Shown here piece by piece: positions 9,385 to 56,717 of a DNA stretch of 64,000 bases. The notes below the pieces were generated by a model. That model worked only from the letters and a program-made list of their open reading frames with translations, was not told where the DNA came from and did not search any database. The first letter of the stretch is position 1, and the number at the start of each line of letters is the position of its first letter. The position numbers and the translations under genes are program-made. Origin of the DNA: Candidatus Omnitrophota bacterium (GTDB taxonomy: Bacteria > Omnitrophota > Gorgyraeia > Zapsychrales > Zapsychraceae); NCBI GenBank assembly GCA_029261055.1, contig JAJDCA010000015.1:19998-83997 (forward strand), written 5' to 3'.

Positions 9385-9556
9385 CCTTGCTTTTTAAAAG
9401 AAGCAAAGTTGCAAGAAACAAGATGCAAAGAAAAAAGCAAAAATCAAAATCTTTTTTTGTTTCTTTACTTCTTACCTCTTGCCTTTTACTTCTTACTTTT
9501 CTATCTCTTAACTTTTTCTCTGCTTCTCATTTCTTTGCCTCTTACTTCTTTACTCA
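9385..9556. repeat. Purine-arm/pyrimidine-arm imperfect inverted-repeat element (AGAAGTAAGAG / CTCTTACTTCT family), copy 1.
   Basis: A purine-rich arm (aaagaagcaaagttgcaagaaacaagatgcaaagaaaaaagc...) is followed by a ~105-nt almost pure-pyrimidine tract (ctttacttcttacctcttgccttttacttcttac...). It lies between the tonB stop and the FTR1 start. Confidence 0.55.
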
Positions 9557-10143
9557 ACTAATCTAAATTCTACCGGAACGGTAATCTGTGATGAAAATGT
9601 CAAGTCGCCGGATTGCGCCGGTGAAAATTTCCAATTTTGAACCGTGCTTAATGCTGCTTCATCTAAAATTTTGTATCCCGAATTTTTTTCAATTTCAACC
9701 CGTGAAGCCATCCCATCCTTCGTAACAAACACACGTAAAATAACCACCCCTTCCCAACCACGCCGTCGGGCAACCCGCGGATACGCAGGTGCCGGATTAA
9801 TGTAATCTAAAGGTTTTGCCTCCACTTCCGCCCCTTTGGATTCATGACTTTCCACGACAATAGGCTCTACCTCCTCAACAGGCTTTTCTACCTTTTCCTC
9901 TACAGGTGGTTGATAAACTTCCGGTGAAGGTTCTATAGTCTCTTCAATGGCCACTACTTTTTCATATTCAATAACTTCTTCAATTTCCGGAACAGGTGGC
10001 TCTTCAACAAAAACCATCTCTAACGTATTCGGCGCCTGCAAAACAGCCATCTGCGGCGATGTCGGCATAAACTGCCCTGCACCTAAAACAGCTAAGTGTC
10101 CAGACAATGACAAAAATAATATCGGCATAAAAGCATCTTTCAT
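9550..10143 (-). CDS. tonB: Energy transducer TonB.
   Basis: A Pro/Glu-rich spacer (EEPPVPEIEEVIEYEKV...PVEEKVEKPVEE) and a TonB C-terminal domain (YPRVARRRGWEGVVILRVFVTKDGMASRVEIEKNSGYKILDEAALSTVQNWKFSP). Confidence 0.75.
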   Translation of the reverse strand: MKDAFMPILFLSLSGHLAVLGAGQFMPTSPQMAVLQAPNTLEMVFVEEPPVPEIEEVIEYEKVVAIEETIEPSPEVYQPPVEEKVEKPVEEVEPIVVESHESKGAEVEAKPLDYINPAPAYPRVARRRGWEGVVILRVFVTKDGMASRVEIEKNSGYKILDEAALSTVQNWKFSPAQSGDLTFSSQITVPVEFRLVE

Positions 10144-10576: not shown

Positions 10577-11257
10577 TTATTGTGTTACGTTAATTTTCTC
10601 ATTTTCTGCTTCCGGATTAGCCGCCTTAAAATCATGCGCCGTGGGTTGTCCAAAATATTCATCTAACTCAGAAACAATGCCTTGCATACGTCGGGCAATA
10701 CGATCAGCACGACTTTCAAATCCATGGTAGGCCACCATGCACGGAATGGCTACAATCAAACCAAAAACAGTACTTAATAAAGCTTCCCATATGCCTCCAG
10801 CCAAACTTTGCACCTGCACCTGACCGGCCGATAATTCGATTTGATGAAATGCCATCACCAAACCGGCCACCGTACCCAACAATCCTAATAACGGCGCAAT
10901 ATGTGTAATCGTTGCTAAGCCCCTTAAACGACGCTCAACTTTTTCAATAGCCATAGACCCTTCACGACTCAAAACACTATCCCGAAGTTTGTGACGAAGA
11001 TGCTGCAAATAAATACCGGCAATACGCGCAACCGGATTTCGGAATTTATGACAATACCCTACAGCTTCCTCTTGTTTACCTGAACGCAATAAATTAAACA
11101 GTTTCTGACTGAACCCTGCATAATTAATGTGCAGCCGTGAAAAATAATACAGCCTTTCCATGATGATGGCCGTACCGATAACCGAGCACACAAAGAGCGG
11201 CCAACGTGTCAGTCCCGCCTTAGTAAACAAATCCGATAAATTTTGAAACCAATGCAT
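10577..11257 (-). CDS. exbB: MotA/TolQ/ExbB proton-channel protein.
   Basis: 226 aa with three TM segments, a conserved ExbB C-terminal core (LATITHIAPLLGLLGTVAGLVMAF) and exbBD-tonB gene order. Confidence 0.8.
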   Translation of the reverse strand: MHWFQNLSDLFTKAGLTRWPLFVCSVIGTAIIMERLYYFSRLHINYAGFSQKLFNLLRSGKQEEAVGYCHKFRNPVARIAGIYLQHLRHKLRDSVLSREGSMAIEKVERRLRGLATITHIAPLLGLLGTVAGLVMAFHQIELSAGQVQVQSLAGGIWEALLSTVFGLIVAIPCMVAYHGFESRADRIARRMQGIVSELDEYFGQPTAHDFKAANPEAENEKINVTQ

Positions 11258-11280
11258 TGTAACCCTCCGTTCTTAATGAT

Positions 11281-11416
11281 GCAGAGAAGTAAAGAAACAA
11301 GAAGTAGAGATAAAAACAAAAAATTAAATTCACTCTTCTACTTCTCTACTTCTTACTTCTCTGCATCTCTCCTTCTTATTTCTCTGCTTCTTGCCTCTCT
11401 ATTTCTTACTTCTTAA
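11281..11416. repeat. Purine-arm/pyrimidine-arm inverted-repeat element, copy 2, between the TonB-dependent receptor stop and the exbB start.
   Basis: gcagagaagtaaagaaacaagaagtagagataaaaac, then a loop, then tcttctacttctctacttcttacttctctgcatctctcc.... gcagagaagta (11281-11291) pairs with tacttctctgc (11356-11366). Confidence 0.55.
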
Positions 11417-13671
11417 AACACTACCTCCATCCCAAACGTCGCCGTAAACGGTTTTCCCGGTCGTGGTCCATGAGGATGGCGAGAAACGATGTATTCAAGA
11501 TCTCCCACATTATGAAGATTCGCTAGCACTTTAGCATTTTTAGTTAGATTGTAATGTCCGGACACATCCACAACAAAAAATTCATCTGTCTTGCCGAAAC
11601 GGGCATCCGGCGTGGTGCCGTCGGCTTGTAACTGTGCATCGACATTATTGGCTGTTGTAAATGTTTCAGGAACATAAGACCCATCCACAAAAACGCCCCA
11701 TTTTTCAAATTCTAATCCTGTCCCCACACTAAACTGCACTTCAGGAACATACGGGACTTTATTCCCATCCTTGCCTCCACTAAAAATTGATTCGGCATCT
11801 GTCGAATTCGAATCCCCATCAAGCTCAGCATTCGTGTAGGTTAGCGCTAAATAATAAGGGTTTTTAAACGCTTTTTCATTAGCAATCCCAAAATCATATT
11901 GAGCCTTAAATTCTAGGCCCTGGGAAACCACCTTACCAATATTTTCACTGTCACCGGTTCCACCGCCCCCGATATTATCCTTGACCAAAAGATCATCAAA
12001 GTTAGTATGAAAATACGTCAGTTCTGTACTCAAGGCATCACTCTTCTTCCATCGAAGACCAAGTTCTTTTGTTAAACTTGTTTCCTCATCTAAATCAGAT
12101 TTGGCATTATCTCTCGGCCCTGGAACAGAAAATCCTTGATGCACACCTCCAAAAGCCGATAGCTCATCGGAAAACACATATTGCAAACCTGCGCCCCCAG
12201 CAAAGGCTGTAATGTCCGAACTATCTTGCGCAGTAATAACTCCAGGCGTAACCCCTCCTGTACTGAAATCAACAAATTCGTATTGGACATGCTCATACCG
12301 AAAACCTGGCGTAAATGTCCATGCCCCCCAATCAATATTATCGCGCAGATAACTTGAAATAGAGATAGACTCTTGCCGTCGATTACCGGCTGTACCCGGC
12401 GCACTCGATGAAATCCCCGTGATCACGCCACTCGCATCTTGCGTGTAGGTATCAGTGTTTTGATCCCGTCGGACATAATCTTGATGAAAACCGAGCCCCC
12501 ATTCAATATCATGCGTAAAATCTCCAGTGGTTAAATCAAAGTTTACATTATTAAGAAGACCCCACTGGGCATACTCTCTATTATTATTACGTACATCAAA
12601 CGTGCCCGCGGCTGTACCGCGCATAACATCAAGGGCAGCTCCCCCCGAGGCTAGAACGCTTGAAAGACTACTCCCCGAAACACTTTGCAACTTAGACCAA
12701 TTACGTTGAAACTCATTGTAATAACCAGTCAATGTAACCATGGCATGTTCATTTAATTCTGTACCGTAACGCAAATAACTGCGCGATTGCCGTGTTTGAA
12801 TATTGTCAAAACGTGTAGCCGCATAACGACGATAAGGATTGTCATCAAAGTCAGATTCCGTTAACCCTAAATAGGTTTCATTAGCATCTAAGTCCGTGTA
12901 ACCAAATTTTCCTTCTACCTTCTGATACCGCAAGGTTTCCGGCGAACTTTCCCAGGAAAGCTTTAACATCGGCTCTGATTTAGTAAAACCTGTATCCCCC
13001 CCATCAGTAAAATCGGCCGTAGTATCTATTACCTTAAATCCATCATTTGACCGATAATATTCTTCTAATAAATATCCAATACGTCCAAAACTTGTATCCA
13101 TCGTATCCCCGACATAGGCATGGACCCGACCTTCTTCATTGTCACCATAAAGGCCTTTCAAATAAAATTGTTGTTTTTTGGGAATAGGCGTGGAAAGATA
13201 ATTGACCACCCCACCGGTAGTATGTGGACCATATTTAACCTGGCTGGAACCTTTTAAAACCTCAATCTTATTCATGCGTCCTGCCGTTGGTGAATAATAA
13301 GCCGAAGGTGCAGAATAAGGAGCCGGTGCCGCTGTCACACCATCCTCCATCAAAGTTACCTTTTGGCTACGCCCCACATCCACTCCACGCAAACTGATAT
13401 TAGGAAATAACCCATGACCATCTTCTTCTCTTAAATAGACACCTGGAATTTTTCGCAAAATGCGATTCACATCATCGTAACTATGTTTGCGAATATCTGA
13501 CACACTTACACTGTCACCTGATCCAGGTAACGAGGCTTCGCCTTCTTTAGATCCCAAAACGGTCACAACATTCAAGGCATAATTCTGCCGATCCTCGGCC
13601 TCGGCCATCGTTGCGACCCCCAATAAAATTACGCCTAATCCACAAGCCATTCGTAAATTTTTAAATCTCAT
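11413..13671 (-). CDS. TonB-dependent outer-membrane receptor, probably for a siderophore or metal.
   Basis: 752 aa with an N-terminal signal peptide, a plug region and a beta-barrel with a C-terminal aromatic residue (...GMEVVF). It sits downstream of a Fur-box-like palindrome and upstream of exbB-exbD-tonB. Confidence 0.85.
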   Translation of the reverse strand: MRFKNLRMACGLGVILLGVATMAEAEDRQNYALNVVTVLGSKEGEASLPGSGDSVSVSDIRKHSYDDVNRILRKIPGVYLREEDGHGLFPNISLRGVDVGRSQKVTLMEDGVTAAPAPYSAPSAYYSPTAGRMNKIEVLKGSSQVKYGPHTTGGVVNYLSTPIPKKQQFYLKGLYGDNEEGRVHAYVGDTMDTSFGRIGYLLEEYYRSNDGFKVIDTTADFTDGGDTGFTKSEPMLKLSWESSPETLRYQKVEGKFGYTDLDANETYLGLTESDFDDNPYRRYAATRFDNIQTRQSRSYLRYGTELNEHAMVTLTGYYNEFQRNWSKLQSVSGSSLSSVLASGGAALDVMRGTAAGTFDVRNNNREYAQWGLLNNVNFDLTTGDFTHDIEWGLGFHQDYVRRDQNTDTYTQDASGVITGISSSAPGTAGNRRQESISISSYLRDNIDWGAWTFTPGFRYEHVQYEFVDFSTGGVTPGVITAQDSSDITAFAGGAGLQYVFSDELSAFGGVHQGFSVPGPRDNAKSDLDEETSLTKELGLRWKKSDALSTELTYFHTNFDDLLVKDNIGGGGTGDSENIGKVVSQGLEFKAQYDFGIANEKAFKNPYYLALTYTNAELDGDSNSTDAESIFSGGKDGNKVPYVPEVQFSVGTGLEFEKWGVFVDGSYVPETFTTANNVDAQLQADGTTPDARFGKTDEFFVVDVSGHYNLTKNAKVLANLHNVGDLEYIVSRHPHGPRPGKPFTATFGMEVVF

Positions 13672-21293: not shown

Positions 21294-22859
21294 ATGAAAA
21301 AAATATTTTATTCACTCACATTTATATTAACGCTGTCATTTGCTATAACAGCACAAGCTGAACAGCTTCAGCTTACAACCTACTATCCTGCTCCTTATGG
21401 AGCATACGACAAGCTACTTCTGGTTCCACGCACCCCTTTGAGCGGTAGCTGCCAGACAGGTACGCTTTATATGGAAGACATAGGTAATGGCGATGGAGAA
21501 ATAAGACTTTGTGATAAAGGAATCTGGGCTCCTATTTCAGGCCATTGGAAGCAAGAAAACGATGATATCTTTTTAGTCGATACAGCAACAAACCCTGATT
21601 TATTTGTAGGTATTGGAACCACTAATCCAGGTGCTCGCCTTTCGGTACAAGGCTACGGGAACAGCGCAACAACAGCCAGTCTCAATATGACAAACAGTGA
21701 TGGAAACAGCATACTGTATGCCAGAGATGACAGAAATGTCGGCATTGGAACAACCAACCCTTCAGCGAATTTAGATATTAATAACAATGGCGACCTTACA
21801 GGGGATCCTCTTGGCAGTAATTTATGGTTTCGCCTTTCCGGTGGATCCACCATTGATCACGGACGTATTTGGGCTCAATATTCCAACACTCAAGCTCCTA
21901 TTCTCGTTATGGAAGATGATGACGACCCTTCACGCATTCAATTTCAACAGGTAGGTACAGGCACAGAGTCAACGCCAGAGTTTGTCAGCTGGGTCGGTAT
22001 GGGGAAAAAGAATTCCAGTGACATTGCCCTTATGGGAGGAAAAGTCGGTATCGGTACCACTGACCCTTTAAGTAATCTGCACATCAAAGCGCCTTCGCCA
22101 TCTATAATTTTAGAAAGAGAAGATAATGCCCAAGCAGCTGCTCTAGCATTTTTTCCTAATGGGGCTATTTCCCCTACAAACATGTATTGGGCCATGGGGC
22201 TCAATCTAAATAGTAACCATTTTGTTATCGCTAATGATAGCAACACATCCTTTCCTAACAACATAAGATTTACCATTAAAGATGACGGTAAAGTCGCTAT
22301 GGGAGGAAATCATATTCCCCAAACTGATCTGCATATAAAGGGAAATGGTGTGCTTAGATTAGAAGATACTAGCGTAGCAATAGACTTCATAAATGAGAAT
22401 TCTGGTGACGATAATTTTAGTATTGCTTCTTGGGGCGGAAGTAAAGATATGCTCAGATTTCGATCTAACAAAGATGGAACTTGGGACGATATTGTCCAGT
22501 TTGAAAGTGATGGCGATGTATGGGTCGAAGATGATGTAACGGCCGATGAATACAAAACACATTCTGACGTTCGCCTTAAAAAAAATATCCTACCACTGAC
22601 AGACGCGCTCTCACGTGTGACACAGCTCCGTGGTGTTAACTACCAATGGAGAGATACCGATAAAGATCAAGGAAAAATTCAAATGGGTCTCATCGCTCAG
22701 GAAGTAGAAGAAGTATTTCCTGAAGTCGTTTCAACTGACGAAGACGGATTCAAATCTGTAGCCTATAGTAAACTTGTTGCTGCTTTGATCGAAGCTGTTA
22801 AAGAATTAAAAGCAGAAAATGATGATCTTAAATTGAGGATTGAGAAAATAGAAAAATAA
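21294..22859 (+). CDS. Secreted fibre/adhesin-like protein with IGTTxP-type repeats and a C-terminal S74 intramolecular-chaperone auto-processing domain (phage tail-spike type).
   Basis: Signal peptide MKKIFYSLTFILTLSFAITAQA. Repeated (V/I)GIGTT(N/D)P motifs. The C-terminal ~125 aa (HSDVRLKKNILPL...GLIAQEVEEVFPEVV...LIEAVKELKAENDDLKL) match the conserved core of the peptidase S74 chaperone domain, spanning roughly 22485..22856. Confidence 0.65.
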   Translation: MKKIFYSLTFILTLSFAITAQAEQLQLTTYYPAPYGAYDKLLLVPRTPLSGSCQTGTLYMEDIGNGDGEIRLCDKGIWAPISGHWKQENDDIFLVDTATNPDLFVGIGTTNPGARLSVQGYGNSATTASLNMTNSDGNSILYARDDRNVGIGTTNPSANLDINNNGDLTGDPLGSNLWFRLSGGSTIDHGRIWAQYSNTQAPILVMEDDDDPSRIQFQQVGTGTESTPEFVSWVGMGKKNSSDIALMGGKVGIGTTDPLSNLHIKAPSPSIILEREDNAQAAALAFFPNGAISPTNMYWAMGLNLNSNHFVIANDSNTSFPNNIRFTIKDDGKVAMGGNHIPQTDLHIKGNGVLRLEDTSVAIDFINENSGDDNFSIASWGGSKDMLRFRSNKDGTWDDIVQFESDGDVWVEDDVTADEYKTHSDVRLKKNILPLTDALSRVTQLRGVNYQWRDTDKDQGKIQMGLIAQEVEEVFPEVVSTDEDGFKSVAYSKLVAALIEAVKELKAENDDLKLRIEKIEK

Positions 22860-43683: not shown

Positions 43684-45969
43684 ATGTGGATGAAATGGGT
43701 TCCTTGGCGATTTATTATTCAGAATGCGGCGAGGAAGAATGGGTTTTTGGATCCGGTAGAGGTGTTTACGCGGTTGGAACGGTTTGCGCAGCCGTCGGAG
43801 GTTGCGGCCCCTATTCAATTGCTTCGGTCTGGCGTTGTTTTGCATGCGCGGGGTTTGGTCAATAGTCAGGCGATTCAGCATAATCTGGATTGGGTGTGGC
43901 CGTATTGGGTGGAACGTCAATTTAATCCGGAAGATAGTTCTTTTATTCCACGTGCTTTCTCGATTACGCATATTAATTTAACGCACCGAAATTGGACGGC
44001 CGTGGGTTTGCCGGATTGTGATGAGCTTCCTATTGTAGACCCACGTGGTTTGGTAACACCTTTTTTTGATGGGTGGTCGATTGATTGTTGGATGGTTGAT
44101 GAGGAGCGCAAGTATCTTCTTCCATCGCGCCTTGCTTCTGTGACGCAAAGTATTGATTTTAACAATGAAGTTATTGTGACAACAGATGCGAGGGCAGAAG
44201 GTAAACAGCTCACTTCAAAAGTTTCGGTTATCGGGGATGTGGTGGCGCCGGTTTGTCAAATCCAAATCGAAGGGACGAGTCAATCTAAACGAGGTTGGAT
44301 TGTTGTGGCGCTTAGGCCGTACAATCCTGAAGGGGTGAGTTTTATCCATGACGTCGAATTACTTTCGAATCATCGAGGCTGGAGAGTTAATGATAAACAA
44401 AATGTGAATTTTGATGTTATTCCAGATAAGCATGTTTTTTCTGATTATTTGCAAGGCGACGTGTTTAGTCATCTTTCTGAATCAGATGATCGTACGAAAA
44501 TACGATGTAAGGTGGGGCTAGCTACAGCAGCCGCACAATTTGAACTTTCGCCGAATAAATCCCGCAACATTACGCTCGCCATTCCTTTGAAGGGAAAACA
44601 GAATGTGGCCATCAAACAACAAACTTCCATTGAGAGTTGGGATGCAAGTTTGCAGGATGCCTGCCAGTTAAGTATTCCAGACGACAAAATTAAGTTTCTC
44701 TATGATGTTGCAGTAAGAACACTCGTCTTGCATTCTCCCGATGAAGTTTATCCCGGCCCGTACACGTACAAACGGTTTTGGTTTCGTGATGCGGCGTTCA
44801 TATTACATGCGATGTTGTGCATGGGGCTTAAAGATCGTGTCCGACGTGTGATGGATTTTTTTCCCTCCAAGCAGACGCTCAAAGGATACTTTCTTTCGCA
44901 AGAAGGTGAATGGGATTCTAACGGTGAAGCCTTGTGGATTATGGAAAAGTATTGTCGTATGACGGGTAACCCTCTTCCTGAATTTTGGCACAAGGCGGTT
45001 GATTTGGGTGGACGATGGATTATGCACAAACGATTGAAAGGACATCACAATACGCTTTGTGCAGGATTGTTTCCGCCGGGATTTAGTGCCGAACATTTAG
45101 GACCGAATGATTATTATTATTGGGATGATTTCTGGGGTGTGGCTGGTTTGAAGGCAGCGGGTTATTTAACAGAAACATTAGGTCATAAAAGCCGAGCGCA
45201 ATATTTTTGGGGTGAGGCCAAGCATTTTATGGATGACATTGAACAAAGCTTGTTTAAGGTAGTCGAACGCTTGGAACAATCCATCATACCGGCGTCACCT
45301 TATCGACGTATGGATGCCGGGGCCATTGGTTCAATCGTTGTCGATTATCCGCTTAAGTTGTGGCCAGCAAAGGATGCGCGGCTTACAAACACAATGGATT
45401 TTCTCCTGCAACATTGTTGTGTGAAGGGCGGATTCTTCCAGGACATGACGCATTCGGGGATTAATCCGTATTTGACATTACACATGGCGCAGGTGTTATT
45501 ACGCAGTGGAGACAATCGGTATTTTGATTTGATGCAGACCGTTGCTAAATTGGCATCCTCCACTGGCCAATGGCCCGAGGCGATTCATCCGATTACGTTG
45601 GGTGGATGCATGGGGGATGGGCAGCATGTCTGGGCGGCCGCGGAATGGATATTGATGATACGAAATTGCTTTGTGCGTGAGGAGGAGAATAGATTGATTC
45701 TGGGCTCAGGTGTTCCCAAAGTGTGGATCGGTCCAGGCAAGACAATTTCTTTCGGTCCTGTGCACACTGATTTTGGAACGTTGAATATGACAATTAAAAA
45801 GAGTGACGATGATGTCAATGTATGTTGGGAAGGGGAGTGGTTGAAGGAAGAACCGACAATTGAAGTGGCATTGCCGGGGTTTAGCAAGATCGTTGCGCAA
45901 CCCGGAACAACAAGGCTTGCGGTGAAGAAACAAGAAGCAGAGGTGCAAGAAGTAAGAGACAAGATGTAG
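43684..45969 (+). CDS. Six-hairpin glycosidase, GH15 (glucoamylase/trehalase)-like, with an N-terminal beta-sandwich domain.
   Basis: GPYTYKRFWFRDAAFILHAM resembles the GH15 YxYxWxRDAA motif. GEWDSNGEALW also fits. There is a strong RBS (aaggaggtcactATG). Confidence 0.5.
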   Translation: MWMKWVPWRFIIQNAARKNGFLDPVEVFTRLERFAQPSEVAAPIQLLRSGVVLHARGLVNSQAIQHNLDWVWPYWVERQFNPEDSSFIPRAFSITHINLTHRNWTAVGLPDCDELPIVDPRGLVTPFFDGWSIDCWMVDEERKYLLPSRLASVTQSIDFNNEVIVTTDARAEGKQLTSKVSVIGDVVAPVCQIQIEGTSQSKRGWIVVALRPYNPEGVSFIHDVELLSNHRGWRVNDKQNVNFDVIPDKHVFSDYLQGDVFSHLSESDDRTKIRCKVGLATAAAQFELSPNKSRNITLAIPLKGKQNVAIKQQTSIESWDASLQDACQLSIPDDKIKFLYDVAVRTLVLHSPDEVYPGPYTYKRFWFRDAAFILHAMLCMGLKDRVRRVMDFFPSKQTLKGYFLSQEGEWDSNGEALWIMEKYCRMTGNPLPEFWHKAVDLGGRWIMHKRLKGHHNTLCAGLFPPGFSAEHLGPNDYYYWDDFWGVAGLKAAGYLTETLGHKSRAQYFWGEAKHFMDDIEQSLFKVVERLEQSIIPASPYRRMDAGAIGSIVVDYPLKLWPAKDARLTNTMDFLLQHCCVKGGFFQDMTHSGINPYLTLHMAQVLLRSGDNRYFDLMQTVAKLASSTGQWPEAIHPITLGGCMGDGQHVWAAAEWILMIRNCFVREEENRLILGSGVPKVWIGPGKTISFGPVHTDFGTLNMTIKKSDDDVNVCWEGEWLKEEPTIEVALPGFSKIVAQPGTTRLAVKKQEAEVQEVRDKM

Positions 45970-46166
45970 AGAAGTAAGAGGTAGAGAGGCAAGAAGTAAA
46001 GAGATAAGAAGCAAAGAAGTAAGAGATAGAGGAGCAGAGAAGTAGAGAAGTGAGTAATTAAAAAATATGAATAATTTTCTATTTTGTTTTTTGCATCTTA
46101 CTTCTCTATTTCTCTACATCTTGCTTCTCAACTCTGCCTCTTGTTTCTTACATCTCTACTTCTCTT
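45945..46166. repeat. Purine-arm/pyrimidine-arm inverted-repeat element, copy 3 (~220 bp). It overlaps the last codons of the GH15-like gene.
   Basis: gaagcagaggtgcaagaagtaagagacaagatgtagagaagtaagaggtagagaggcaagaagtaaagagataagaag..., then a loop (aaaaaatatgaataattttctattttg), then ...catcttacttctctatttctctacatcttgcttctcaactctgcctcttgtttcttacatctctacttctctt. Confidence 0.6.
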
Positions 46167-46182
46167 AACAAGGCGGTGAAGA

Positions 46183-49100
46183 ATGAAAATTCTCATGATG
46201 ACCAACACATACACACCCATTGTCGGGGGGGTTGAGGCATCTATTCAGTCTCTGACGAGGCAACTCAAAGAAAAGGGACATGAGGTGGTGATTGTGGCGC
46301 CGTGTTTTGAAGCTATGCCTGAGCAGGAAGAGGGTGTTGTGCGTATTCCTGCGATTCAGAAATTTAATCATACCGATTTTTCGGTGAATTTGCCTATTCC
46401 GGGTTTATTAGAAAAATTGATGTTTGATTTTAAACCGGATATTGTGCATAGCCATCATCCATTTTTGATTGGCGACATGGCATTACGGTTAAGTGGTCAG
46501 TATGGCATACCGCTTATTTTTACGTATCACACGATGTATGAAGAATACATTCATTATCTTCCCTTTCAAAATAATATGATTCGGCGTTTTGTGATTGAAC
46601 TTTCAGCCGGTTATGCCAATCTTGCCGACCAGGTGATTGTTCCTACAAGAAGTGTGAGAGATATTTTGCATGCGCGTGGTGTGGATACGCCGATAGACAT
46701 TATTCCGACGGGGATTGATGTTAAGAAATTTTCTCAAGGGAAAGGTACGGCTATGCGTCAAAGTTTTAACATTCCGCGTGAGGCCTTTGTGATCGGACAT
46801 GTCGGGCGTTTAGCCCCTGAAAAGAATTTGGAATTTCTGGCTCATGCTGTAACAGAATTTTTAAAAGAAGATCAGAATGCTCATTTTTTACTCGTTGGTA
46901 AAGGGCCCTGCGAAAAAGTTGTTCAAGAAATATTTCATGCAAAAGGTATGGATGCGCGGATACATTGTAGCGGCGTTTTAAGGGATGCGGCGTTGGCGAA
47001 TGCGTATCATGTCATGGATATTTTTGCATTTACGTCTCAGACGGAAACACAAGGGCTTGTTTTGGCTGAGGCATTGGCTGCAGGTATTCCGGTTGTGGCG
47101 CTTGATGCCCCGGGTGTGCGGGATATTGTGAAAGATACTATTAATGGACGGATTATTCATGGGCAGGAGCGTGACACATTTGTGTCAACACTCATGGAAT
47201 GCCGGCAAAAATCTTCGACTGATTTTCAGGAAATGAAAAAAAATGCACAAAAAAGTATTCAGCATTTTTCCTGCGAAGAGACGGCACGGAATATTTTTAA
47301 AGTTTATGGCCAGGCAAAATTACAGAAAAAGAAAAGGCGTGAAATAGACAACAGCCTTTGGCAGATGACGATGCAGCGTATTAAGACGGAATGGAGTATG
47401 GTTAAGAATTTAGCTGACGCTTCAGAAGCGGCTTACAGCGAGACGGCGTTTGATATTAAAACGCCACGCCATGCCCCTCAAAATAATTGGATGTTACGAT
47501 TACGACGTTGGCTCAACACACATGAATGGTCGGCTCGGATTTTGAAGCTGTCGCAATCTACGGGGACAGAATCCAAGCCTGGGTTAATTATGATTCAGAT
47601 TGATGGTTTTTCAAAAACACAGTTTGAAAATGCATTAAAAAATAAAGAAATGCCGTTTTGTCAGGGGTTATTACATAAACAGCGATACAAAATTTATCCT
47701 TTTTTTACCGGCATGCCATCGACGACACCTTCTGTTCAAGGAGAGTTGTTTTATGGCGTTAAACAAATTGTGCCGGCGTTTTCGTATTTTGATCAACGTG
47801 CCCAGAAAGTTTTTACAATGTTTGATGGCGATGATGCGACGGAAATTGAACGGCGGCTGAAAGAACGTGGAGGGCCGGGATTACTCGAAGGGGGGAGTTC
47901 GTATTCGAATGTGTATGCCGGAGGCGCCAAAGAAGCACATTTTTGTGCCATATCCTTGGGTTTGGATAAAATTTGGAAGGATGTTAATCCTTTAAGTATC
48001 ATTCTTTTAGCCCTAACACATTTTGTGACACTCATACGTATTATTCTGCTGGTCAGTCTGGAGATGGTATTGGCGACGATGGATTTTATTTTTGGATTGA
48101 TTGACGGGGAAAATTTTCGAAAGGAATTTAAGTTCGTCTCAACGCGGGGGTTGATTTGTATTTTGTTGCGCGAATTGATTACGCTTGGCTCCAAGATTGA
48201 TATTGCGCGGGGTTTGCCTATTATTCATTTAAATTTTTTAGGGTACGATGAGCAGGCTCATCGAAGAGGGCCATCATCTAAGTTTGCCCATTGGGCGTTG
48301 AAAGGGATTGATTTATCCATTGCGGATATTTACAAAAATGCTCTGCAGTCAACGCGTCGGAATTATGATGTTTGGATTTATTCTGATCATGGACAGGAGG
48401 ATACATCTTCGTACATGATTGAGCATGGGATGTACGTATTTGAGGCGATCGAGAAACTTTATCGTCAGATGTACGGAATCTCATCTGAAAAGGGGTCGGT
48501 GCATACCGATTTTAGGGGGCACAACGGCTTAGCCGGGAAGCGCCGTGCTCAAACAACGACTCACGACGTTCGTCTAAACTGCGCGCGGCACTCCCCGGCT
48601 AAGCCGTTTAACGTGCCCCCTAAAATTGGTAGGCACCAAGGAGGATGCTCCAGTTTTCGAGAATGGCAGGAGCCACCGCAGCGGGGAATTCAATTTTCTC
48701 GTGCACGTTATTTAGGGAAGAGGTTTATTCAAAATGTTTTTACGTCGGAAAAAGTATTGGACCATGATGATATTAAAGTGACAGCGATTGGGCCGACCGG
48801 GAATATTTATTTAACCAAGGAATTGAATGAAGATGAAAATTTTTTGTTTGCCCGTAAACTTGTGCGGACATTAAAAATTCCTTTGGTATTTTTAAGGGAA
48901 GGACCTGGGAAAGTGCGCGCATTTAATAAACATGGTGAGTTTATTTTACCGGATCAGGCCAAAGAGGTTTTGGGGGAAGATCATCCTTATTTGAAAGAAG
49001 TCACGCAGGATTTGATTGCGGTGTGTCATCATGCCAGTGCAGGGACTTTTACATTTTCCGGTTGGCGGCCGCATAAAAAACCGGTTAGTTTTCCTATTGA

Positions 49101-50037
49101 AAATGGGGCGCATGCCGGGCCGGGGATTCGGGAGACGAATGCCTTTGCACTTATGCCGTCGGATATTGTGGCATTGCCATCAACGAGGGCGTATCTTCGT
49201 ACCATGGATTTGCGTGAATATGCCTTACAATTTTTGGGGAGGACAGCGCCAGAGAAAATTGATGCAGAAGTTTACATTTCTAAGAAAACAAACACAACTA
49301 AGAAAATACGGATTATGACCTACAATGTGCATAATTGTCAGGGGATGGATGGCAAAACGTCGCCTGAACGTATTGCGCGTGTGATTGCACGGCATGAACC
49401 GGATATTGTGGCTTTGCAAGAGTTGGATGTGAAGCGTCACCGGACAGGAGGTATTGATCAGCCGCATTTGATTGCGAAGCATTTAAAAATGATTTACCAT
49501 TTTCATCCTAATATTTGCATAGAAGAAGGGCTTTATGGCAATGCGATTTTAAGCCGTTATCCCATGAAGTTGATTTATGCTAGCCGTCTGCCCATATTAC
49601 CGGGACGCCCTGATTTAGAATTTCGTGGGGCTATTTGGGCGACTGTTGATGTGGAAGGAACAAGGGTTCAGATTTTTAACACACATTTGGGCCTACGGCC
49701 AAAAGAACAGTTACGACAAGCAGAGGCATTAGTCGGGGAAGATTGGCTGACACACTCAGCTTGTGATGGGCCAGTTATCCTTTGTGGTGATTTTAATGCC
49801 TTGCCTGGATCGTCCGTGGTACGCCGTATTACAGAAACTCTTCGTGATGCGCAGGTTGAACTAGATAATCATCGTCCTCATCCAACCTGGTTTAGCCCTT
49901 ACCCGCTAGGCCGCATCGATCATATCTTTATCAACCCGCAAATAGAAGTTACCCGAGCCCACGTCTCCAAGACCGCATTAGACAAAACCGCCTCCGACCA
50001 TCTGCCCTTGGTGGTGGATGTGATGGTTAAAAATTAA
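46183..50037 (+). CDS. Tri-domain protein: a GT4 glycosyltransferase, an alkaline-phosphatase-superfamily NPP-type phosphodiesterase, and an endonuclease/exonuclease/phosphatase (EEP) domain.
   Basis: GT4 N-terminus (MKILMMTNTYTPIVGGVEA... and the E-x7-E motif QTETQGLVLAEALAAG). A middle NPP-like region (IQIDGFSKTQFENAL...YPFFTGMPSTTPSVQGELFYG...HLNFLGYDEQAHRRGP...YSDHGQ). A C-terminal EEP (IMTYNVHNCQGMDGKTSPERIARVIARHEPDIVALQELD...CGDFNALPGS...DHIF). Confidence 0.7.
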   Translation: MKILMMTNTYTPIVGGVEASIQSLTRQLKEKGHEVVIVAPCFEAMPEQEEGVVRIPAIQKFNHTDFSVNLPIPGLLEKLMFDFKPDIVHSHHPFLIGDMALRLSGQYGIPLIFTYHTMYEEYIHYLPFQNNMIRRFVIELSAGYANLADQVIVPTRSVRDILHARGVDTPIDIIPTGIDVKKFSQGKGTAMRQSFNIPREAFVIGHVGRLAPEKNLEFLAHAVTEFLKEDQNAHFLLVGKGPCEKVVQEIFHAKGMDARIHCSGVLRDAALANAYHVMDIFAFTSQTETQGLVLAEALAAGIPVVALDAPGVRDIVKDTINGRIIHGQERDTFVSTLMECRQKSSTDFQEMKKNAQKSIQHFSCEETARNIFKVYGQAKLQKKKRREIDNSLWQMTMQRIKTEWSMVKNLADASEAAYSETAFDIKTPRHAPQNNWMLRLRRWLNTHEWSARILKLSQSTGTESKPGLIMIQIDGFSKTQFENALKNKEMPFCQGLLHKQRYKIYPFFTGMPSTTPSVQGELFYGVKQIVPAFSYFDQRAQKVFTMFDGDDATEIERRLKERGGPGLLEGGSSYSNVYAGGAKEAHFCAISLGLDKIWKDVNPLSIILLALTHFVTLIRIILLVSLEMVLATMDFIFGLIDGENFRKEFKFVSTRGLICILLRELITLGSKIDIARGLPIIHLNFLGYDEQAHRRGPSSKFAHWALKGIDLSIADIYKNALQSTRRNYDVWIYSDHGQEDTSSYMIEHGMYVFEAIEKLYRQMYGISSEKGSVHTDFRGHNGLAGKRRAQTTTHDVRLNCARHSPAKPFNVPPKIGRHQGGCSSFREWQEPPQRGIQFSRARYLGKRFIQNVFTSEKVLDHDDIKVTAIGPTGNIYLTKELNEDENFLFARKLVRTLKIPLVFLREGPGKVRAFNKHGEFILPDQAKEVLGEDHPYLKEVTQDLIAVCHHASAGTFTFSGWRPHKKPVSFPIENGAHAGPGIRETNAFALMPSDIVALPSTRAYLRTMDLREYALQFLGRTAPEKIDAEVYISKKTNTTKKIRIMTYNVHNCQGMDGKTSPERIARVIARHEPDIVALQELDVKRHRTGGIDQPHLIAKHLKMIYHFHPNICIEEGLYGNAILSRYPMKLIYASRLPILPGRPDLEFRGAIWATVDVEGTRVQIFNTHLGLRPKEQLRQAEALVGEDWLTHSACDGPVILCGDFNALPGSSVVRRITETLRDAQVELDNHRPHPTWFSPYPLGRIDHIFINPQIEVTRAHVSKTALDKTASDHLPLVVDVMVKN

Positions 50038-50085
50038 TTTCTTTTTATTCCTTTTTTTTGATTAACGTTTTACAATAGTGGACAC

Positions 50086-50469
50086 ATGAGCAAAATTAAT
50101 TTTACAGTCGAAGAAAAAGAAAATTTGTACATCTTGCGGATGCGGGGGGATATTACGACGGAGAGTTTGCCTGAATACCGTCAAGTGGTGGATGATTTGA
50201 TGAAGGATTTGGATGTGCAAAATAAAAAAGATCTCAGCTTTATTGTAGATTATGACGGTGTGGGTGAGGTGGATAGTGCGGCTGTGGCAAATATTTTGGA
50301 GCGTTTAACAAACGCGGTCAGGACTGATCACAGGGTTGTGTTTATTAATGTTCCTGAGAAATTTAGTAATTTAGTCGATATTCTTCAAGTCGGTGATTCG
50401 ATAAAGATTTACGATTCGGAGCAACAAGCTATTGAGGAACTAAGGAAGATAGGAGAAGCAGAGAAGTAA
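50086..50469 (+). CDS. STAS-domain anti-sigma-factor antagonist (SpoIIAA-like).
   Basis: 127 aa with a STAS fold pattern (LYILRMRGDITTESLPEYRQVVDD...VVFINVPEKFSNLVDILQVGDSIKIY). Confidence 0.7.
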   Translation: MSKINFTVEEKENLYILRMRGDITTESLPEYRQVVDDLMKDLDVQNKKDLSFIVDYDGVGEVDSAAVANILERLTNAVRTDHRVVFINVPEKFSNLVDILQVGDSIKIYDSEQQAIEELRKIGEAEK

Positions 50470-50665
50470 GAAACAAGAAGTAGAGAAGTAAGATTCAAGA
50501 AGCAGAAAATTAGAGAGGAAAAACACAAGAAGCAAAGCGGAAAGAATCAGAGAATCAGAGAAGTAGAGAATTCAAAAAATTCAATAGCGGATGGCTAAAG
50601 TTTTCCGAATGCATTCTTTTTTGCTTTTTCTCTACATCTTGTTTCTTACATCTATGCTTCTTTTA
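50446..50665. repeat. Purine-arm/pyrimidine-arm inverted-repeat element, copy 4. It overlaps the STAS gene 3' end.
   Basis: aggagaagcagagaagtaagaaacaagaagtagagaagtaagattcaagaagcagaaaattagagagg..., then a loop, then ttttgctttttctctacatcttgtttcttacatctatgcttctttt. Confidence 0.55.
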
Positions 50666-50679
50666 ATAAGGGAGATAAT

Positions 50680-51747
50680 ATGAATACAGAATCAAAAAAA
50701 TTTTTATGCAACCTTTTGGCGCAATGTGGACCTTCGGGATTTGAGGAAACGGCGCAAGCGGTGTGGGTGAAACGAACGAAGCAATTTTCCGACAAGGTGA
50801 CGCGGGATGTGCATGGGAATGCTGTGGGTATTCTTAATCCTAAAGCGCCGTTTAAAGTGATGCTCGCTGGGCATTGTGATGAAATAGGGTTTATTGTATC
50901 ACATATTTCTAATGACGGTTATTTGCATATTATTCCAATCGGTGGCATTGATACCGGTGTTCTTCCTGGGTCACAAGTTAAAGTTCAAACGGAAAAGGGA
51001 TGGATTGATGGCGTAATTGGAAAAAAAGCTATTCATTTGATGGAAGTGGAAGAACGTCGAAAAGTTTTGCCGATGAAGGAATTGTGGGTGGATATCGGAG
51101 CCAAAGACCGGGATGATGCCTTAAAGGTTACCAAGGTGGGTGATCCGATTTCTTACGCGCCGAATTATCTTGAATTACGGAATAATATTTTTTCTTCTAA
51201 GGGCTGTGACAATAAGATGGGGGCCTTTGTCGTCTCTGAAGTGCAGAAGATTTTAAGTCAAAAGAAATCCAAATTAAAGGTTGGGGTGTATTCAGTCTCT
51301 ACTGTGCAAGAAGAAGTAGGTTTGCGTGGGGCAACGACGAGCGCTTTTGGCATTGATCCACAGGCGGCCATTGCGGTGGATGTTGGTTTTTCATCGGACA
51401 CGCCGGGGATTGATAAGCGTCTTGTTGGGGAAGTTTCTTTAGGCAAAGGGCCCATTTTGCATTGTGGTCCGCAAATCAATCGTGTATTGGGTAAATTATT
51501 AGAGACGGTTGCTAAAAAGAAGAAAATTCCTTGCCAAATGTCTTCGCTGGGACGGCCGGGAGGCACAGACACAGCCGCTATTCAGATTACGCGTGCAGGA
51601 GTCGCTACAGCCTTAATTAGTATTCCTAATCGTTACATGCATACAATGGTGGAAACGTGTTCAACGGACGATTTAGTCGCAGCATCGAATCTTATTGCTG
51701 AGACTATTTTAAATATTACCCCAAAAACAGATTTTGTTCCAAAATAA
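50680..51747 (+). CDS. M42-family aminopeptidase (FrvX/glutamyl aminopeptidase-like).
   Basis: HCDEIGF and GCDNKMGAF metal-ligand motifs. 355 aa. Confidence 0.8.
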   Translation: MNTESKKFLCNLLAQCGPSGFEETAQAVWVKRTKQFSDKVTRDVHGNAVGILNPKAPFKVMLAGHCDEIGFIVSHISNDGYLHIIPIGGIDTGVLPGSQVKVQTEKGWIDGVIGKKAIHLMEVEERRKVLPMKELWVDIGAKDRDDALKVTKVGDPISYAPNYLELRNNIFSSKGCDNKMGAFVVSEVQKILSQKKSKLKVGVYSVSTVQEEVGLRGATTSAFGIDPQAAIAVDVGFSSDTPGIDKRLVGEVSLGKGPILHCGPQINRVLGKLLETVAKKKKIPCQMSSLGRPGGTDTAAIQITRAGVATALISIPNRYMHTMVETCSTDDLVAASNLIAETILNITPKTDFVPK

Positions 51748-52019
51748 TGAAACAAGAAGAAATTAGCTGGGACAGTTCAGCAGAAGAAAATTTTAAACAA
51801 TTGATTGCCAAAATGCCGGTGTTTGTACGCGGCATGGCCGAGAAGGCCGTCGCTAAAAAGGCAGAAGATATCACTCTACAAGATAACCGTTCGGTTGTGG
51901 GAGAAAAAGATTTTATTGACGCTCTTTTTTCGGAAACACCTTTTGGTTTTCACGGCCTCATGAAAAGCGACCTAAACGAACTCGGCATTAATTACACCCA
52001 ATACGGTCATCCGGAGTAA
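51747..52019 (+). CDS. Small PCP_red-domain-like protein.
   Basis: SWDSSAEENFKQLIAKMPVFVRGMAEKAVAKKA resembles the W..EAE..L..IPFFVR pattern of the protochlorophyllide-reductase C-terminal domain family. Confidence 0.4.
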   Translation: MKQEEISWDSSAEENFKQLIAKMPVFVRGMAEKAVAKKAEDITLQDNRSVVGEKDFIDALFSETPFGFHGLMKSDLNELGINYTQYGHPE

Positions 52020-52021
52020 AT

Positions 52022-52417
52022 ATGAAAATAAAAATATTAATTATTTGTTTATTAGCAGCGGGGGCCGGTTGTGCGTCTTCGTTAACGAAAGAAATTGAAT
52101 CTGTTTCGGCGCAGTACGCAACGATTGCTTTTGAGGATGGCATTGGTTTGAAAGAGGCTAAGCTTATTGCGCAGCAAGAATTGATCAAACAAAAATTAGT
52201 AGACATTTACGATCTTTCCTTGCCGCAGATAGCTAGGAATGTTTCAACCTTGCCAAACTATCATAATTATTGGTTTATTTCTTTTAAGGAAAGAAAGCCG
52301 GATAGTATTGAGTTCATATTTATGTGTATTATCGACAAGAAAAATGGCCGTGTAAAATTTTCCAATGACTATCCTCCGAGTAAACAGTGGATTTTGGAAG
52401 CTGCTTTGCTTGGTTAG
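52022..52417 (+). CDS. Lipoprotein of unknown function.
   Basis: The signal peptide has a lipobox (LLAAGAGC-A). Confidence 0.5.
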   Translation: MKIKILIICLLAAGAGCASSLTKEIESVSAQYATIAFEDGIGLKEAKLIAQQELIKQKLVDIYDLSLPQIARNVSTLPNYHNYWFISFKERKPDSIEFIFMCIIDKKNGRVKFSNDYPPSKQWILEAALLG

Positions 52418-52446
52418 AAATCGTGTTTATTTCTCTGTTATTTTAG

Positions 52447-52801: not shown

Positions 52802-52856
52802 TGCGCGTAAAGGTAGATATTTGACTCTATCCTAAAACAACACATAACACATCTAA

Positions 52857-52891: not shown

Positions 52892-52904
52892 ACCGAAAGA
52901 ATTC

Positions 52905-54816: not shown

Positions 54817-56190
54817 ATGCGAAAAATTAATTCTTTATCTTCCTCCCCGACATCTGCGAATCTGTTTGAAGGAACTGTATGTGCACAACTTTTTAAGGAG
54901 TCTCCTTTAAGTCATCGCATGCGGCCGCAGACGCTGGATGAATATGTCGGGCAGCGCCATGTTTTAGGTGAAGATAAATTGTTAACCCGCGCAATTCAAG
55001 CAGATCGCATTACGTCTTTAATTATTTATGGCCCTCCCGGCGTTGGTAAAACAACCCTCGCTCAGTGCATCAGTGCAAAAACGCAAGCCGCGTTTGAATG
55101 CATTAACGCGGTTTCTTCCAATGTAGAAGAGATGCGTAAAATTCTTGCGGCTGCAGCTAATCGTCGATTAACATGTCAGAAAAAAACGATCCTTTTTATT
55201 GACGAAATTCATCGTTTTAATAAGGCACAGCAAGATATTTTGATGCCGGATTTAGAAGAAGGAAACATTATTCTTGTCGGCGCCACGGTATTTAATCCAT
55301 TTTTTTCTTTGATTGGACCATTATTATCCCGATCATTGGTGTTTGAATTGAATCCTCTCACGCAGGAAGATATTTTAAAAATTTTAAATAATGCCTTGGA
55401 GGATCAAGAAAAGGGGTTAGGGGCGTTCTCGATACAAGCGGATGAGGGGGCCTTAAATTTTATTGCGGATGTTTGTGATGGTGATGCGCGTAAAGCCTTG
55501 AATGCTTTGGAAGTCGGGTGCTTAACAACGCCAAAAGATAAGCAAGGGAAGGTTGTTTTTAATTTAGATGTCGCGCAAGAATCCATCCAAAAGAAACAAG
55601 TGAATTATGATAAAAAAGGGGATGCGCATTATGATACAGCCTCGGCCTTTATCAAATCGATGCGTGGTTCTGATCCTGATGCGGCGCTGTATTGGATGGC
55701 TAAAATGATTTATGCGGGAGAAGATCCTCGGTTTATTGCACGACGCATTTGTATCTGTGCAGCAGAAGACGTGGGTAATGCCGATCCACAAGCCCTTGTA
55801 CTGGCGAATTCTGCGTTTCAAGTTTCCGAGTTTATTGGGATGCCTGAGGCACGCATTCCTTTGGCGCAGGCCGCTATTTATGTGGCGTGTGCACCCAAGT
55901 CGAATGCCTCGTATTTAGGGATTGACAAAGCCATTGATGCCGTGAAGAATAAGCGCGTCCAGGAAGTACCCGTGTATCTTAAAGATTCTTCTTATCGCGG
56001 AGCCAAGAAAATGGGCCACGGTCAAGGCTACAAATATGCGCATAATTATCAAGGGCATTATGTTGATCAAGAATACATCTCTGTGAAAGAAACTTTTTAT
56101 GAACCGACAGATATGGGTTATGAACAGAAAATAAAAGCAAGACTTGGTCAAAAGAAGCAAGAGGTAAAGAGGCAAGAAACAGAGAAGTAA
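54817..56190 (+). CDS. rarA: Replication-associated recombination protein A (AAA+ ATPase).
   Basis: Walker A GPPGVGKTTLA, Walker B ILFIDEIHRFN, and a MgsA C-terminal domain. Confidence 0.85.
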   Translation: MRKINSLSSSPTSANLFEGTVCAQLFKESPLSHRMRPQTLDEYVGQRHVLGEDKLLTRAIQADRITSLIIYGPPGVGKTTLAQCISAKTQAAFECINAVSSNVEEMRKILAAAANRRLTCQKKTILFIDEIHRFNKAQQDILMPDLEEGNIILVGATVFNPFFSLIGPLLSRSLVFELNPLTQEDILKILNNALEDQEKGLGAFSIQADEGALNFIADVCDGDARKALNALEVGCLTTPKDKQGKVVFNLDVAQESIQKKQVNYDKKGDAHYDTASAFIKSMRGSDPDAALYWMAKMIYAGEDPRFIARRICICAAEDVGNADPQALVLANSAFQVSEFIGMPEARIPLAQAAIYVACAPKSNASYLGIDKAIDAVKNKRVQEVPVYLKDSSYRGAKKMGHGQGYKYAHNYQGHYVDQEYISVKETFYEPTDMGYEQKIKARLGQKKQEVKRQETEK

Positions 56191-56240
56191 AGATTTGTTT
56201 TATTTCTGCCTCTTGTTTCTGTGTTTCTGTGCTTCTTTAA
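56141..56240. repeat. Purine-arm/pyrimidine-arm inverted-repeat element, copy 5. Compact at ~100 bp. It supplies the last ~15 codons of rarA.
   Basis: aagaagcaagaggtaaagaggcaagaaacagagaagtaaag, then a loop (atttgttttatt), then tctgcctcttgtttctgtgtttctgtgcttcttt. Confidence 0.55.
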
Positions 56241-56252
56241 AAAAGGAATATC

Positions 56253-56717
56253 ATGAAACTCAATGAAGAAATCATTACATTTCTTAAAAGTAAAGATGTT
56301 GTTCTTGTCTCAACCTTAGATGAAAAAGGGCGTATCCATTGCGCGGTGAAAGGCATTGTGGAGGTATTGAAGTCTGGTAAAATTTTTATTATTGATCTTT
56401 TTTCCGGACAGACATTAAAAAATATACGAAAGAATCCAAATGTAAGTATTGCCGCCACAGATGAAGTTCGGTTTAAAGGCTATACGTTGCAGGGGAAAGC
56501 TATCATTGTGCCTAAGTGGCAAATTCATCAGGACTTTATTAATAAGTGGGAAACGCATGTGATCCAAAAAGTTTCCGACCGCATTTCTAGAAGCGTGCAT
56601 TCAGGAAAAAAAGGAATGCAGCACTACGAACTCAGTCTTCCCGACAATCCCAAACATATCATTGATATTCAAGTTGAGAACATCATCGACCTTTCTCCAA
56701 GAGTAAAGAAAAAATAG
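56253..56717 (+). CDS. Pyridoxamine 5'-phosphate oxidase-like FMN-binding split-barrel protein.
   Basis: 154 aa. The N-terminus, IITFLKSKDVVLVSTLDEKGRIHCAVKGIVEV, matches the PNPOx-like family pattern. Confidence 0.5.
   Translation: MKLNEEIITFLKSKDVVLVSTLDEKGRIHCAVKGIVEVLKSGKIFIIDLFSGQTLKNIRKNPNVSIAATDEVRFKGYTLQGKAIIVPKWQIHQDFINKWETHVIQKVSDRISRSVHSGKKGMQHYELSLPDNPKHIIDIQVENIIDLSPRVKKK

Follow-up and report, generated by a model that had tools for sequence, protein, structure and literature searches.

The 64,000-nucleotide stretch of Candidatus Omnitrophota DNA analysed here (the window; assembly GCA_029261055.1, contig JAJDCA010000015.1, positions 19,998 to 83,997) contains five imperfect palindromes, E1 to E5, which are well supported as copies of one dispersed family in Omnitrophota. 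Each has a purine-rich arm, an A/T-rich apex and a complementary pyrimidine-rich arm. The identity, location, mutual homology and conservation of the elements are well supported; their function and mode of spread we infer. The favoured reading, to which we give a probability of about 0.55, is that they form a family of transcribed intercistronic hairpins with arms made of heptamer and octamer arrays, which would act on mRNA processing or stability, the peptide tails that they lend to upstream genes being a side effect. A preliminary description of this DNA had reported at least five such elements with this arrangement of arms; the five loci that it gave are all present at essentially unchanged coordinates and the arrangement holds at every one.

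Parsing of the purine strands resolves the first arm into an array of degenerate 7-8 nt units of the form (R)AGARGYA, and the second arm is its complement. Units ending in YA include AGAAGTA, GAGAAGTA, AGAGGCA and AGAAACA. Mixed 7- and 8-nt units alternate, with periods of 8, 15 and 22 at 62-88% matches (Tandem Repeats Finder), and the parse, clear yet degenerate, replaces the 11-nt unit suggested earlier. The arms are inverted over their whole length (31/34 in the outer arms of E4), as in the terminal inverted repeats of miniature inverted-repeat transposable elements (MITEs). The second arm starts at the apex with a T-rich stretch, TTTTTTGYTTTT, and holds the conserved stretch ...TCTTGTTTCT...TGCTTCTTTTAA; the arm adjoining the upstream gene is the longer one in all five window copies. 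Element size ranges from 100 to 250 bp, a 2.5-fold variation.

The five elements are the main long tracts of the window in which either purines or pyrimidines make up at least 85% of the bases, a few shorter ones lying elsewhere (for example 58519-58579 and 6264-6310). The string AGAAGTAARAG, with up to one mismatch, occurs 18 times in the window against an expected 3.5 ± 1.95, an approximately 5-fold excess; none of 100 shuffles reached 18, and 11 of the 18 matches fall in E1-E5. Matches to a three-unit pattern within the window are confined to four elements (E2-E5, none in E1), and a covariance model, R1, finds exactly five copies at 74-128 bits, the next match scoring 19.9 bits (E = 0.12). 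E3-E5 are 100% identical in an independent Logan assembly (L119, identical over 43364-58833) and so do not stem from the quirks of a single assembler; L119 was built from the same run, SRR15505515, and is the only second assembly of the locus.

That the elements are one related family had been proposed in the preliminary description, and unit-order shuffles, alignment of the 3' module and the covariance model all agree: on alignment the copies are homologues and not mere low complexity. Arm alignments compared with unit-order shuffles gave z values of up to 10, with 29 of 66 arm pairs at p ≤ 0.01. The 3' module, that is the second arms over about 60 nt, aligns at 67% mean column identity, with the consensus ATTTTTTGYTTTTATCTYTGCCTCTTGTTTCT-TACATCT-TGCTTCTTTTAA. 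A profile made from the window copies alone gives a score of 26.8 bits (E = 3e-6) to a locus in another genome, L099, and at most 18 bits to generic heptamer arrays of other phyla, and R1 recovers E3 (81.6 bits) and E4 (74 bits), neither of which was used in training. Because unit order is kept between copies and between genomes, the copies derive from a common ancestral sequence and not from separate local slippage. Independent repeat arrays had been the first impression, given by the interchangeable arms, and this was overturned by the unit-order, profile and covariance tests.

Folding predicts a long hairpin at every locus (z = -3.0 to -7.1 relative to dinucleotide shuffles). In 5/5 window copies and in 8/10 copies overall the sense RNA forms the more stable fold of the two strands, by a mean of 6.4 kcal/mol, an advantage that comes from the 3-14 G-U pairs per stem. 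These sense-strand G-U pairs, together with the strong conservation described below, may be taken as indirect support for a role at the RNA level. They also bear on the idea that the elements act as DNA, in the form of cruciforms or protein-binding arrays for nucleoid organisation, replication or recombination, which would fit the periodic 7-8 bp arrays with an A/T-rich centre and the strict segregation of purines and pyrimidines between strands. However, the 3-15 G-T oppositions per stem pair in RNA and not in DNA, the unrelated unit sequences found at the same junction in relatives argue against a sequence-specific binder, and all window copies lie between co-directional genes, making a DNA-level role very improbable. 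Triplex or H-DNA formation (PMC4666352) was considered and set aside; the tracts are inverted rather than mirror repeats and are broken up by a pyrimidine every 7-8 nt. The observation that the purine arm comes first in the direction of transcription in 5/5 copies was dropped as evidence of orientation; such an inverted repeat reads alike on both strands, so that purine-first order is uninformative on gene direction.

The elements had earlier been thought genome-specific, which is not the case, since homologous copies were found in other Omnitrophota at other junctions. A related copy lies between rny (RNase Y) and ymdB in L099 (Omnitrophota UBA10147), and others lie between carA and carB in L130, L149 and L247. 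The hosts of the rny-ymdB and carA-carB copies are GC-rich (52-56%) Omnitrophota, and the CarA protein of L130 is identical to one named as Candidatus Omnitrophica. The contig of L247 ends inside the carA-carB element, which suggests that the repeat breaks assemblies.

The strongest evidence that the carA-carB element is more than tolerated is its conservation in one lineage pair, L149 and L130. Their carA genes differ at 172 of 1137 sites (15.1%; 8.0%, 4.3% and 32.6% at the three codon positions) and the adjoining elements at 2 of 147 (1.4%; Fisher p = 7e-8 compared with carA), with no indel. Both changes in the element are transitions that keep predicted pairs, one from A-U to G-U and the other from G-U to G-C. 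A compensatory change was considered and rejected; the variable positions are not partners in the predicted stem, and each keeps its own pair by a wobble, hence the term pair-preserving. The two sequences diverge 13 nt into carB (from position 1824 of L149), so that one of the two is rearranged or chimeric.

This conservation is the main argument in weighing whether the elements are selfish or neutral DNA, MITE-like or driven by slippage, that is tolerated at gene junctions and gives rise to tails and hairpins as side effects. A neutral repeat should fare worse than synonymous sites, but the divergence of the carA-carB copy is about 10-fold lower than that of carA and 24-fold lower than that at the third codon positions of the gene, which counts against neutrality, as do the preserved pairing at both changed sites, the recurrence of different hairpins at the same junction in relatives, flanking repeats that are not of one fixed length, and the unrelated ends of the window's sole transposase gene. 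On the other side, an R1 scan of 113 kb belonging to seven nearer relatives (M42 or 761-aa proteins 61-80% identical) turned up no copy, and the element is therefore dispensable at these junctions. Lengths of 100-250 bp and degenerate 7-8 nt arrays are typical of slippage, E3 and E4 have flanks resembling target duplications, arms are interchangeable between copies, and heptameric repeats are more frequent than expected in many bacteria, a pattern for which polymerase slippage is the proposed explanation (PMC4679880 and PMC4692102, citing Mrazek et al. 2007). Taken together, we regard neutrality as unlikely.

With the neighbouring genes annotated by Pfam, all five window copies prove to be flanked by co-directional genes. 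Of the roughly 20 co-directional spacers of at least 40 nt in the window, five carry an element. Each element fills essentially the whole of its spacer, beginning at the stop codon of the upstream gene (or 5-14 codons ahead of it) and ending 5-20 nt short of the following ATG, and the Shine-Dalgarno sequences of the downstream genes lie outside the stem.

E1 (9385..9556, minus strand) has its sense purine arm at 9448-9556 and its pyrimidine arm at 9385-9447, and lies between a TonB-C gene (9550..10143, minus strand) upstream and an FTR1 permease gene (start 9374, minus strand) downstream. The sense strand folds at -44.0 kcal/mol, compared with -26.9 for the antisense, and R1 scores 109.4 bits on the minus strand. 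E2 (11263..11416, minus strand) consists of a sense purine arm at 11329-11416, an A/T-rich apex at about 11319-11328 and a pyrimidine arm at about 11277-11318, which carries ATTTTTTGTTTTTATCT at its inner end. The neighbouring genes encode a TonB-dependent receptor (11413..13671, minus strand) and ExbB (10577..11257, minus strand). E2 has a fold z of -7.1 and the R1 score of 128.3 bits, and its 3' module shares 17 identical bases with L099.

E3, the focal locus (45925..46169, plus strand), has a purine arm at 45925-46057, an A/T-rich loop at 46058-46074 and a pyrimidine arm at 46075-46169, and folds at -83.8 kcal/mol (z = -5.5). It separates a gene for a conserved 761-aa Omnitrophota protein (43684..45969, plus strand) from a GT4/EEP fusion gene (46183..50037, plus strand). 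E4 (50446..50667, plus strand) has a purine arm at 50446-50572, a long loop at 50573-50612 with small internal hairpins, and a pyrimidine arm at 50613-50667. It folds at -67.1 kcal/mol (z = -6.7) and lies between a STAS gene (50086..50469) and an M42 peptidase gene (50680..51747), both on the plus strand. E5 (56146..56241, plus strand) is the most compact copy, with a purine arm at 56146-56192 and a pyrimidine arm at 56197-56241, between rarA/mgsA (54817..56190) and a PNPOx-like gene (56253..56717), both on the plus strand; its fold z is -3.2 and its R1 score 101.9 bits.

Homologues of the 761-aa protein, the M42 peptidase and RarA are all from Omnitrophota. The 761-aa protein has no Pfam domain, is widespread in Omnitrophota and is sometimes fused to GtrA. 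Its gene always precedes one encoding a GT4 glycosyltransferase-phosphodiesterase-EEP fusion of about 1,250 aa (43684-50037 in the window; L122, L123 and L124), and the two look like a conserved two-gene module.

The preliminary description called the elements terminator-like, and the hairpins are indeed long and placed right after stop codons. The last bases of E1, E4 and E5 are CTTCTTT(T)AA, and similar heptamer hairpins of other phyla (L072, L082) precede real T-runs. In addition, among at least 121 loci listed from many phyla, AGAAGYA-type arrays paired within 100 nt run purine-then-pyrimidine 32 times and the reverse twice, an order resembling A-rich 5' and U-rich 3' flanks. However, terminator and promoter scans of the window called no consensus terminator or promoter on any of the five elements. 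A hairpin with a T-run is missing from each of them, the stems being rich in A-U and G-U pairs and the 3' tails having at most 3-4 T. The gene pair interrupted by E3 is tightly coupled in three relatives, where the orthologous 760-aa and GT4-EEP genes are separated by 11 (L122), 15 (L123) and 1 nt (L124), compared with 213 nt in the window, all of it E3. Homologous copies are found inside carA-carB and rny-ymdB, and no promoter-like site separates an element from the gene after it, whose start lies 5-20 nt past the stem. E3 and the copies in relatives thus appear to be operon-internal, and the earlier label is not supported. Termination of the upstream unit at these sites, perhaps bidirectional or leaky, seems to us improbable; the elements look like transcribed spacers inside operons.

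The position of the elements relative to start and stop codons raises the idea that they control translation, either by bringing the upstream stop and the downstream start together for re-initiation across a long spacer or through a purine arm that masks the C/U-rich arm, a potential Rho or S1 tract, until it is freed by translation of the upstream gene. Every copy has the upstream stop codon either at the first arm or within it, and the Shine-Dalgarno sequence and ATG follow 5-20 nt past the second arm. In L149 no Shine-Dalgarno sequence is evident between the stem and carB, in no copy is the purine arm shorter than the pyrimidine arm, and the 32-to-2 preference among the loci listed places the pyrimidine array second. 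This reasoning is purely geometric, the depth of the stop codon ranges from base to apex of the stem, and the window's downstream genes possess their own Shine-Dalgarno sequences outside it; control of translation is improbable in our estimation.

Under the favoured reading of an intercistronic hairpin acting on mRNA, the element would be transcribed within a polycistronic mRNA and act as RNA. A stem of 35-90 bp, rich in A-U and G-U pairs, would form in the transcript and serve as a barrier to 3'-to-5' exonucleases, as a substrate of a double-strand-specific RNase, or both, and so might make the mRNA fate and expression level of one cistron independent of those of its neighbour, as is described for REP, ERIC and Correia elements. 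New copies would insert at junctions and duplicate at least 11 target bases, which would preserve both the C-terminus encoded upstream and the ribosome-binding site downstream, and arm length would then shift by slippage and internal duplication of 7-8 nt units. Where the array enters the upstream frame it would supply a short K/E/Q-rich tail and a stop codon as a by-product. The preliminary suggestion of an mRNA stabiliser is plausible and is the one that we favour.

Several points weigh against this proposal, in addition to the absence of copies from 113 kb of the seven nearer relatives. The arms pair about equally well with their own and with foreign arms, both in duplex energies and in alignment scores, so that the window does not demonstrate arm-specific co-evolution, the capacity to form hairpins being common to the whole family. 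A general G>C skew of coding strands could explain why sense folds better than antisense. The conservation of the carA-carB copy comes from a single lineage pair, in which recent transfer or gene conversion could yield the same result. The stop codon is at the base of the stem in E1 and E2, 20-45 nt into it in E4 and E3 and near the apex in E5, and there is therefore no single fixed geometry relative to translation. A convincing flanking duplication is missing at three of the five copies (E1, E2 and E5). Finally, co-transcription, processing and stability effects of the elements are each proposed from sequence.

Direct repeats are clearest at E3, where GCGGTGAAGAA occurs on the plus strand at 45919..45929, in the C-terminal codons of the upstream gene, and again at 46173..46183, in the Shine-Dalgarno region running into the ATG at 46183. 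This is an exact 11-nt match, with none of 300 shuffles as good, and ACAAGGC precedes both copies (with a 3-nt indel). The left repeat encodes the genuine C-terminus of the 761-aa protein and the right one is the ribosome-binding region of the next gene. The flanks of E4, TAAGGAAGATA (50441-50451) and TAAGGGAGATA (50667-50677), match at 10 of 11 positions (shuffle p = 0.01), E2 has a 7-nt flanking repeat (p = 0.12), and E1 and E5 have none. The earlier comparison with REP or MITE elements holds in part: the inverted arms fit it, but the arms are heptamer/octamer arrays of variable length, flanks resembling a target duplication occur at just two of the five copies, and the insertion sequence (IS) ends in the window are unrelated. 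The window's only IS is of the IS3 type, with an rve_3 integrase and 38-nt inverted ends at 40304-40341 and 41781-41818. No cognate autonomous element was found in the window, the IS3-type element at 40.3-41.8 kb having unrelated ends, and the window contains no Y1 transposase gene.

In three copies (E3, E4 and E5) the last 5-14 codons of the upstream gene come from the element, and the tails previously attributed to the purine arm read in translation exactly as described. The 761-aa protein ends in KQEAEVQEVRDKM plus the stop codon (45928..45969, plus strand), and the STAS protein in GEAEK plus the stop codon (50452-50469, plus strand). The purine arm of E5 encodes the RarA tail GQKKQEVKRQETEK and its stop codon. 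The Pfam domain MgsA_C ends at residue 444 of the 457 of RarA, and the RarA orthologue of L099 (70% identical), where no element follows the gene, ends ...IKQRLIKGKRGNG and lacks a tail. Homologues of the 761-aa protein end variably, 0-20 residues past a conserved ...PGxxSVxLK position (...xVxxK) near the start of the E3 purine arm. These three observations indicate that the tails are by-products of an array overlapping the reading frame. CarA C-termini are likewise variable across the phylum and rich in K, E, Q and H.

No Rfam family matches the elements at gathering score, a permissive search returning only sub-threshold plant miRNA-precursor hairpins, and the literature searched yielded no description of such repeats in Omnitrophota and no occurrence of the repeat strings. 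As dispersed palindromes of at least about 100 bp between co-directional genes or inside operons, the elements resemble the enterobacterial repetitive intergenic consensus (ERIC) sequences or intergenic repeat units (IRU) of enterobacteria and the Correia elements or Neisseria miniature insertion sequences (NEMIS) of Neisseria. These are dispersed imperfect palindromes of about 100-150 bp that are transcribed, often within operons, fold in mRNA and affect how it is processed or how stable it is; RNase III cuts the Correia elements, and both copy number and presence differ between related genomes. The likeness is one of functional class and not of homology. In contrast to ERIC and Correia elements, those of Omnitrophota have no sequence relationship to them, consist of degenerate 7-8 nt arrays with full segregation of purines and pyrimidines, and show no fixed TA-type target duplication and no visible integration host factor (IHF) site or promoter.

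Other known repeats share single traits. Repetitive extragenic palindromic (REP) sequences and bacterial interspersed mosaic elements (BIMEs) are 20-40 nt long and GC-rich with a GTAG-type head, are mobilised by REP-associated tyrosine transposases (RAYTs) and stabilise upstream mRNA, as in malE-malF. They too are intergenic palindromes inside operons, whereas the window stems are of 35-90 bp and A/T-rich. With MITEs the elements have in common paired inverted arms, 11-nt target direct repeats at two copies and presence or absence at orthologous sites, but flanking repeats are clear at only two of five copies, with an indel at E3, and no autonomous partner was found in the window. Rickettsia palindromic elements (RPEs) insert in frame inside genes and likewise contribute coding sequence from a palindromic repeat; the window elements differ in extending only the 3' end of the upstream gene, by 5-14 codons, with the stop codon in the repeat.

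The repeat unit itself recalls the heptameric long simple-sequence repeats (LSSRs), such as the short tandemly repeated repetitive (STRR) sequences of heterocystous cyanobacteria, GGGAATC in Xanthomonas and TAACTGA in Beggiatoaceae (PMC4692102, PMC4679880). In these papers, heptameric LSSRs are documented in Xanthomonas, Nostoc, Calothrix and Beggiatoaceae with function unknown, and polymerase slippage is proposed as their origin, with reference to Mrazek et al. 2007. Some heptamer arrays are inverted pairs able to form stem-loops (PMC4692102). Like LSSRs, the elements are intergenic arrays of short units near start or stop codons, variable in length and phylogenetically patchy, but their units are degenerate (62-88% matches, 7 plus 8 nt) and their order is conserved across copies and genomes. 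The family links heptameric simple-sequence repeats with dispersed palindromic elements, which are usually treated apart.

Omnitrophota are uncultured and almost nothing is known of their expression control, and the family offers a testable handle on post-transcriptional control in their operons. As a searchable hairpin family it should aid annotation, explaining odd K/E/Q-rich tails and mis-called stops, and it provides an example of a non-coding repeat that has changed far less than the gene beside it. Elements of this kind are familiar and the function here is inferred, which makes the result solid but not surprising.

Junction hairpins with unrelated units occur in other Omnitrophota, where GTGACNN, AAAGGTT, AAAAGTA and GTTATCT types were seen (L249, L248 and L063). 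In L249 (CarA 87% identical) a GTGAC-type heptamer hairpin lies at carA-carB (1878-1968; -40.6 kcal/mol, z = -4.9) and also encodes the CarA tail, and in L248 (CarA 88% identical) a weaker AAAGGTT-type hairpin occupies carA-carB (4108-4256; z = -2.3). L063 has three consecutive junction hairpins with three unit types (including 5040-5178 and 6488-6614). These sequences point to short-unit hairpins at gene junctions as a possibly general habit of Omnitrophota. Speculatively, and with the odds clearly against it, Omnitrophota may keep a selected RNA hairpin at many operon junctions that is renewed by slippage of 7-8 nt units, the structure being kept and the sequence replaceable. If so, the AGAAGCA-, AAAGGTT- and GTGAC-type hairpins of the carA-carB relatives would be one structure with swapped sequences, and the AGAAGYA family of the window one successful mobile lineage of a wider hairpin system. 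The hairpin would then set the expression ratio of neighbouring cistrons or aid ribosome re-initiation across a long spacer, and the 32-to-2 purine-first preference would reflect a rule of co-transcriptional folding, such as never exposing a C/U-rich tract to Rho.

AGAAGYA was the selection criterion of the genome and metagenome scans, and no claim is therefore made that the heptamer itself is special. The matches listed from the genome scan with the three-unit pattern were mostly chance or simple arrays of other phyla, plus L099 and L063. In a metagenome scan with a family-specific pattern, 3 of 120 listed loci pass the profile, and R1 also picks up many looser purine/pyrimidine heptamer hairpins in the metagenome matches. 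Perfect (AAGAAGY)n arrays, often as inverted pairs, are widespread in other phyla among the matches listed, and inverted pairs of AGAAGYA-type arrays were seen in Prevotella, Bacteroides, Clostridia, Vicinamibacterales, Nitrospinota and Calditrichota. Gene orientation around the metagenome matches was discarded, as pyrimidine arrays without stop codons give false open reading frames (ORFs). An apparent 37-to-12 sense bias suffers from the same weakness, second arms having also been counted in, and was likewise set aside. At L007, L009, L072 and L103 different heptamer arrays lie side by side or grade into each other, for example from GTGACAA through GTAATAA to GTAAGAA in L072, which suggests stepwise mutation and re-expansion of units.

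Elsewhere in the window, a cyclic di-GMP-I riboswitch at 21038-21121 (plus strand; 66.5 bits, gathering score 35) is the only Rfam match at gathering level, and downstream of it is a 521-aa ORF (21294..22859) with a Peptidase_S74 (endosialidase chaperone) domain. Two long ORFs run off the ends of the window, one (1-5838, minus strand) encoding a coiled-coil protein longer than 1,950 aa with internal tandem repeats of 234 and 381 nt, and the other (59270-64000, plus strand) more than 1,580 aa. In translation, 31346-40057 (minus strand) encodes a protein of 2,903 aa with many YD/RHS-like repeats; close to its toxin-like C-terminal end is an intein-like segment (CFLAGT...VHN). At about 40000-43700, adjoining the IS3-type element and about 1 kb without a long ORF, gene orientation flips from minus to plus and GC skew changes sign, the cumulative minimum lying near 40 kb. 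This region may mark an origin of replication or simply reflect a local inversion.

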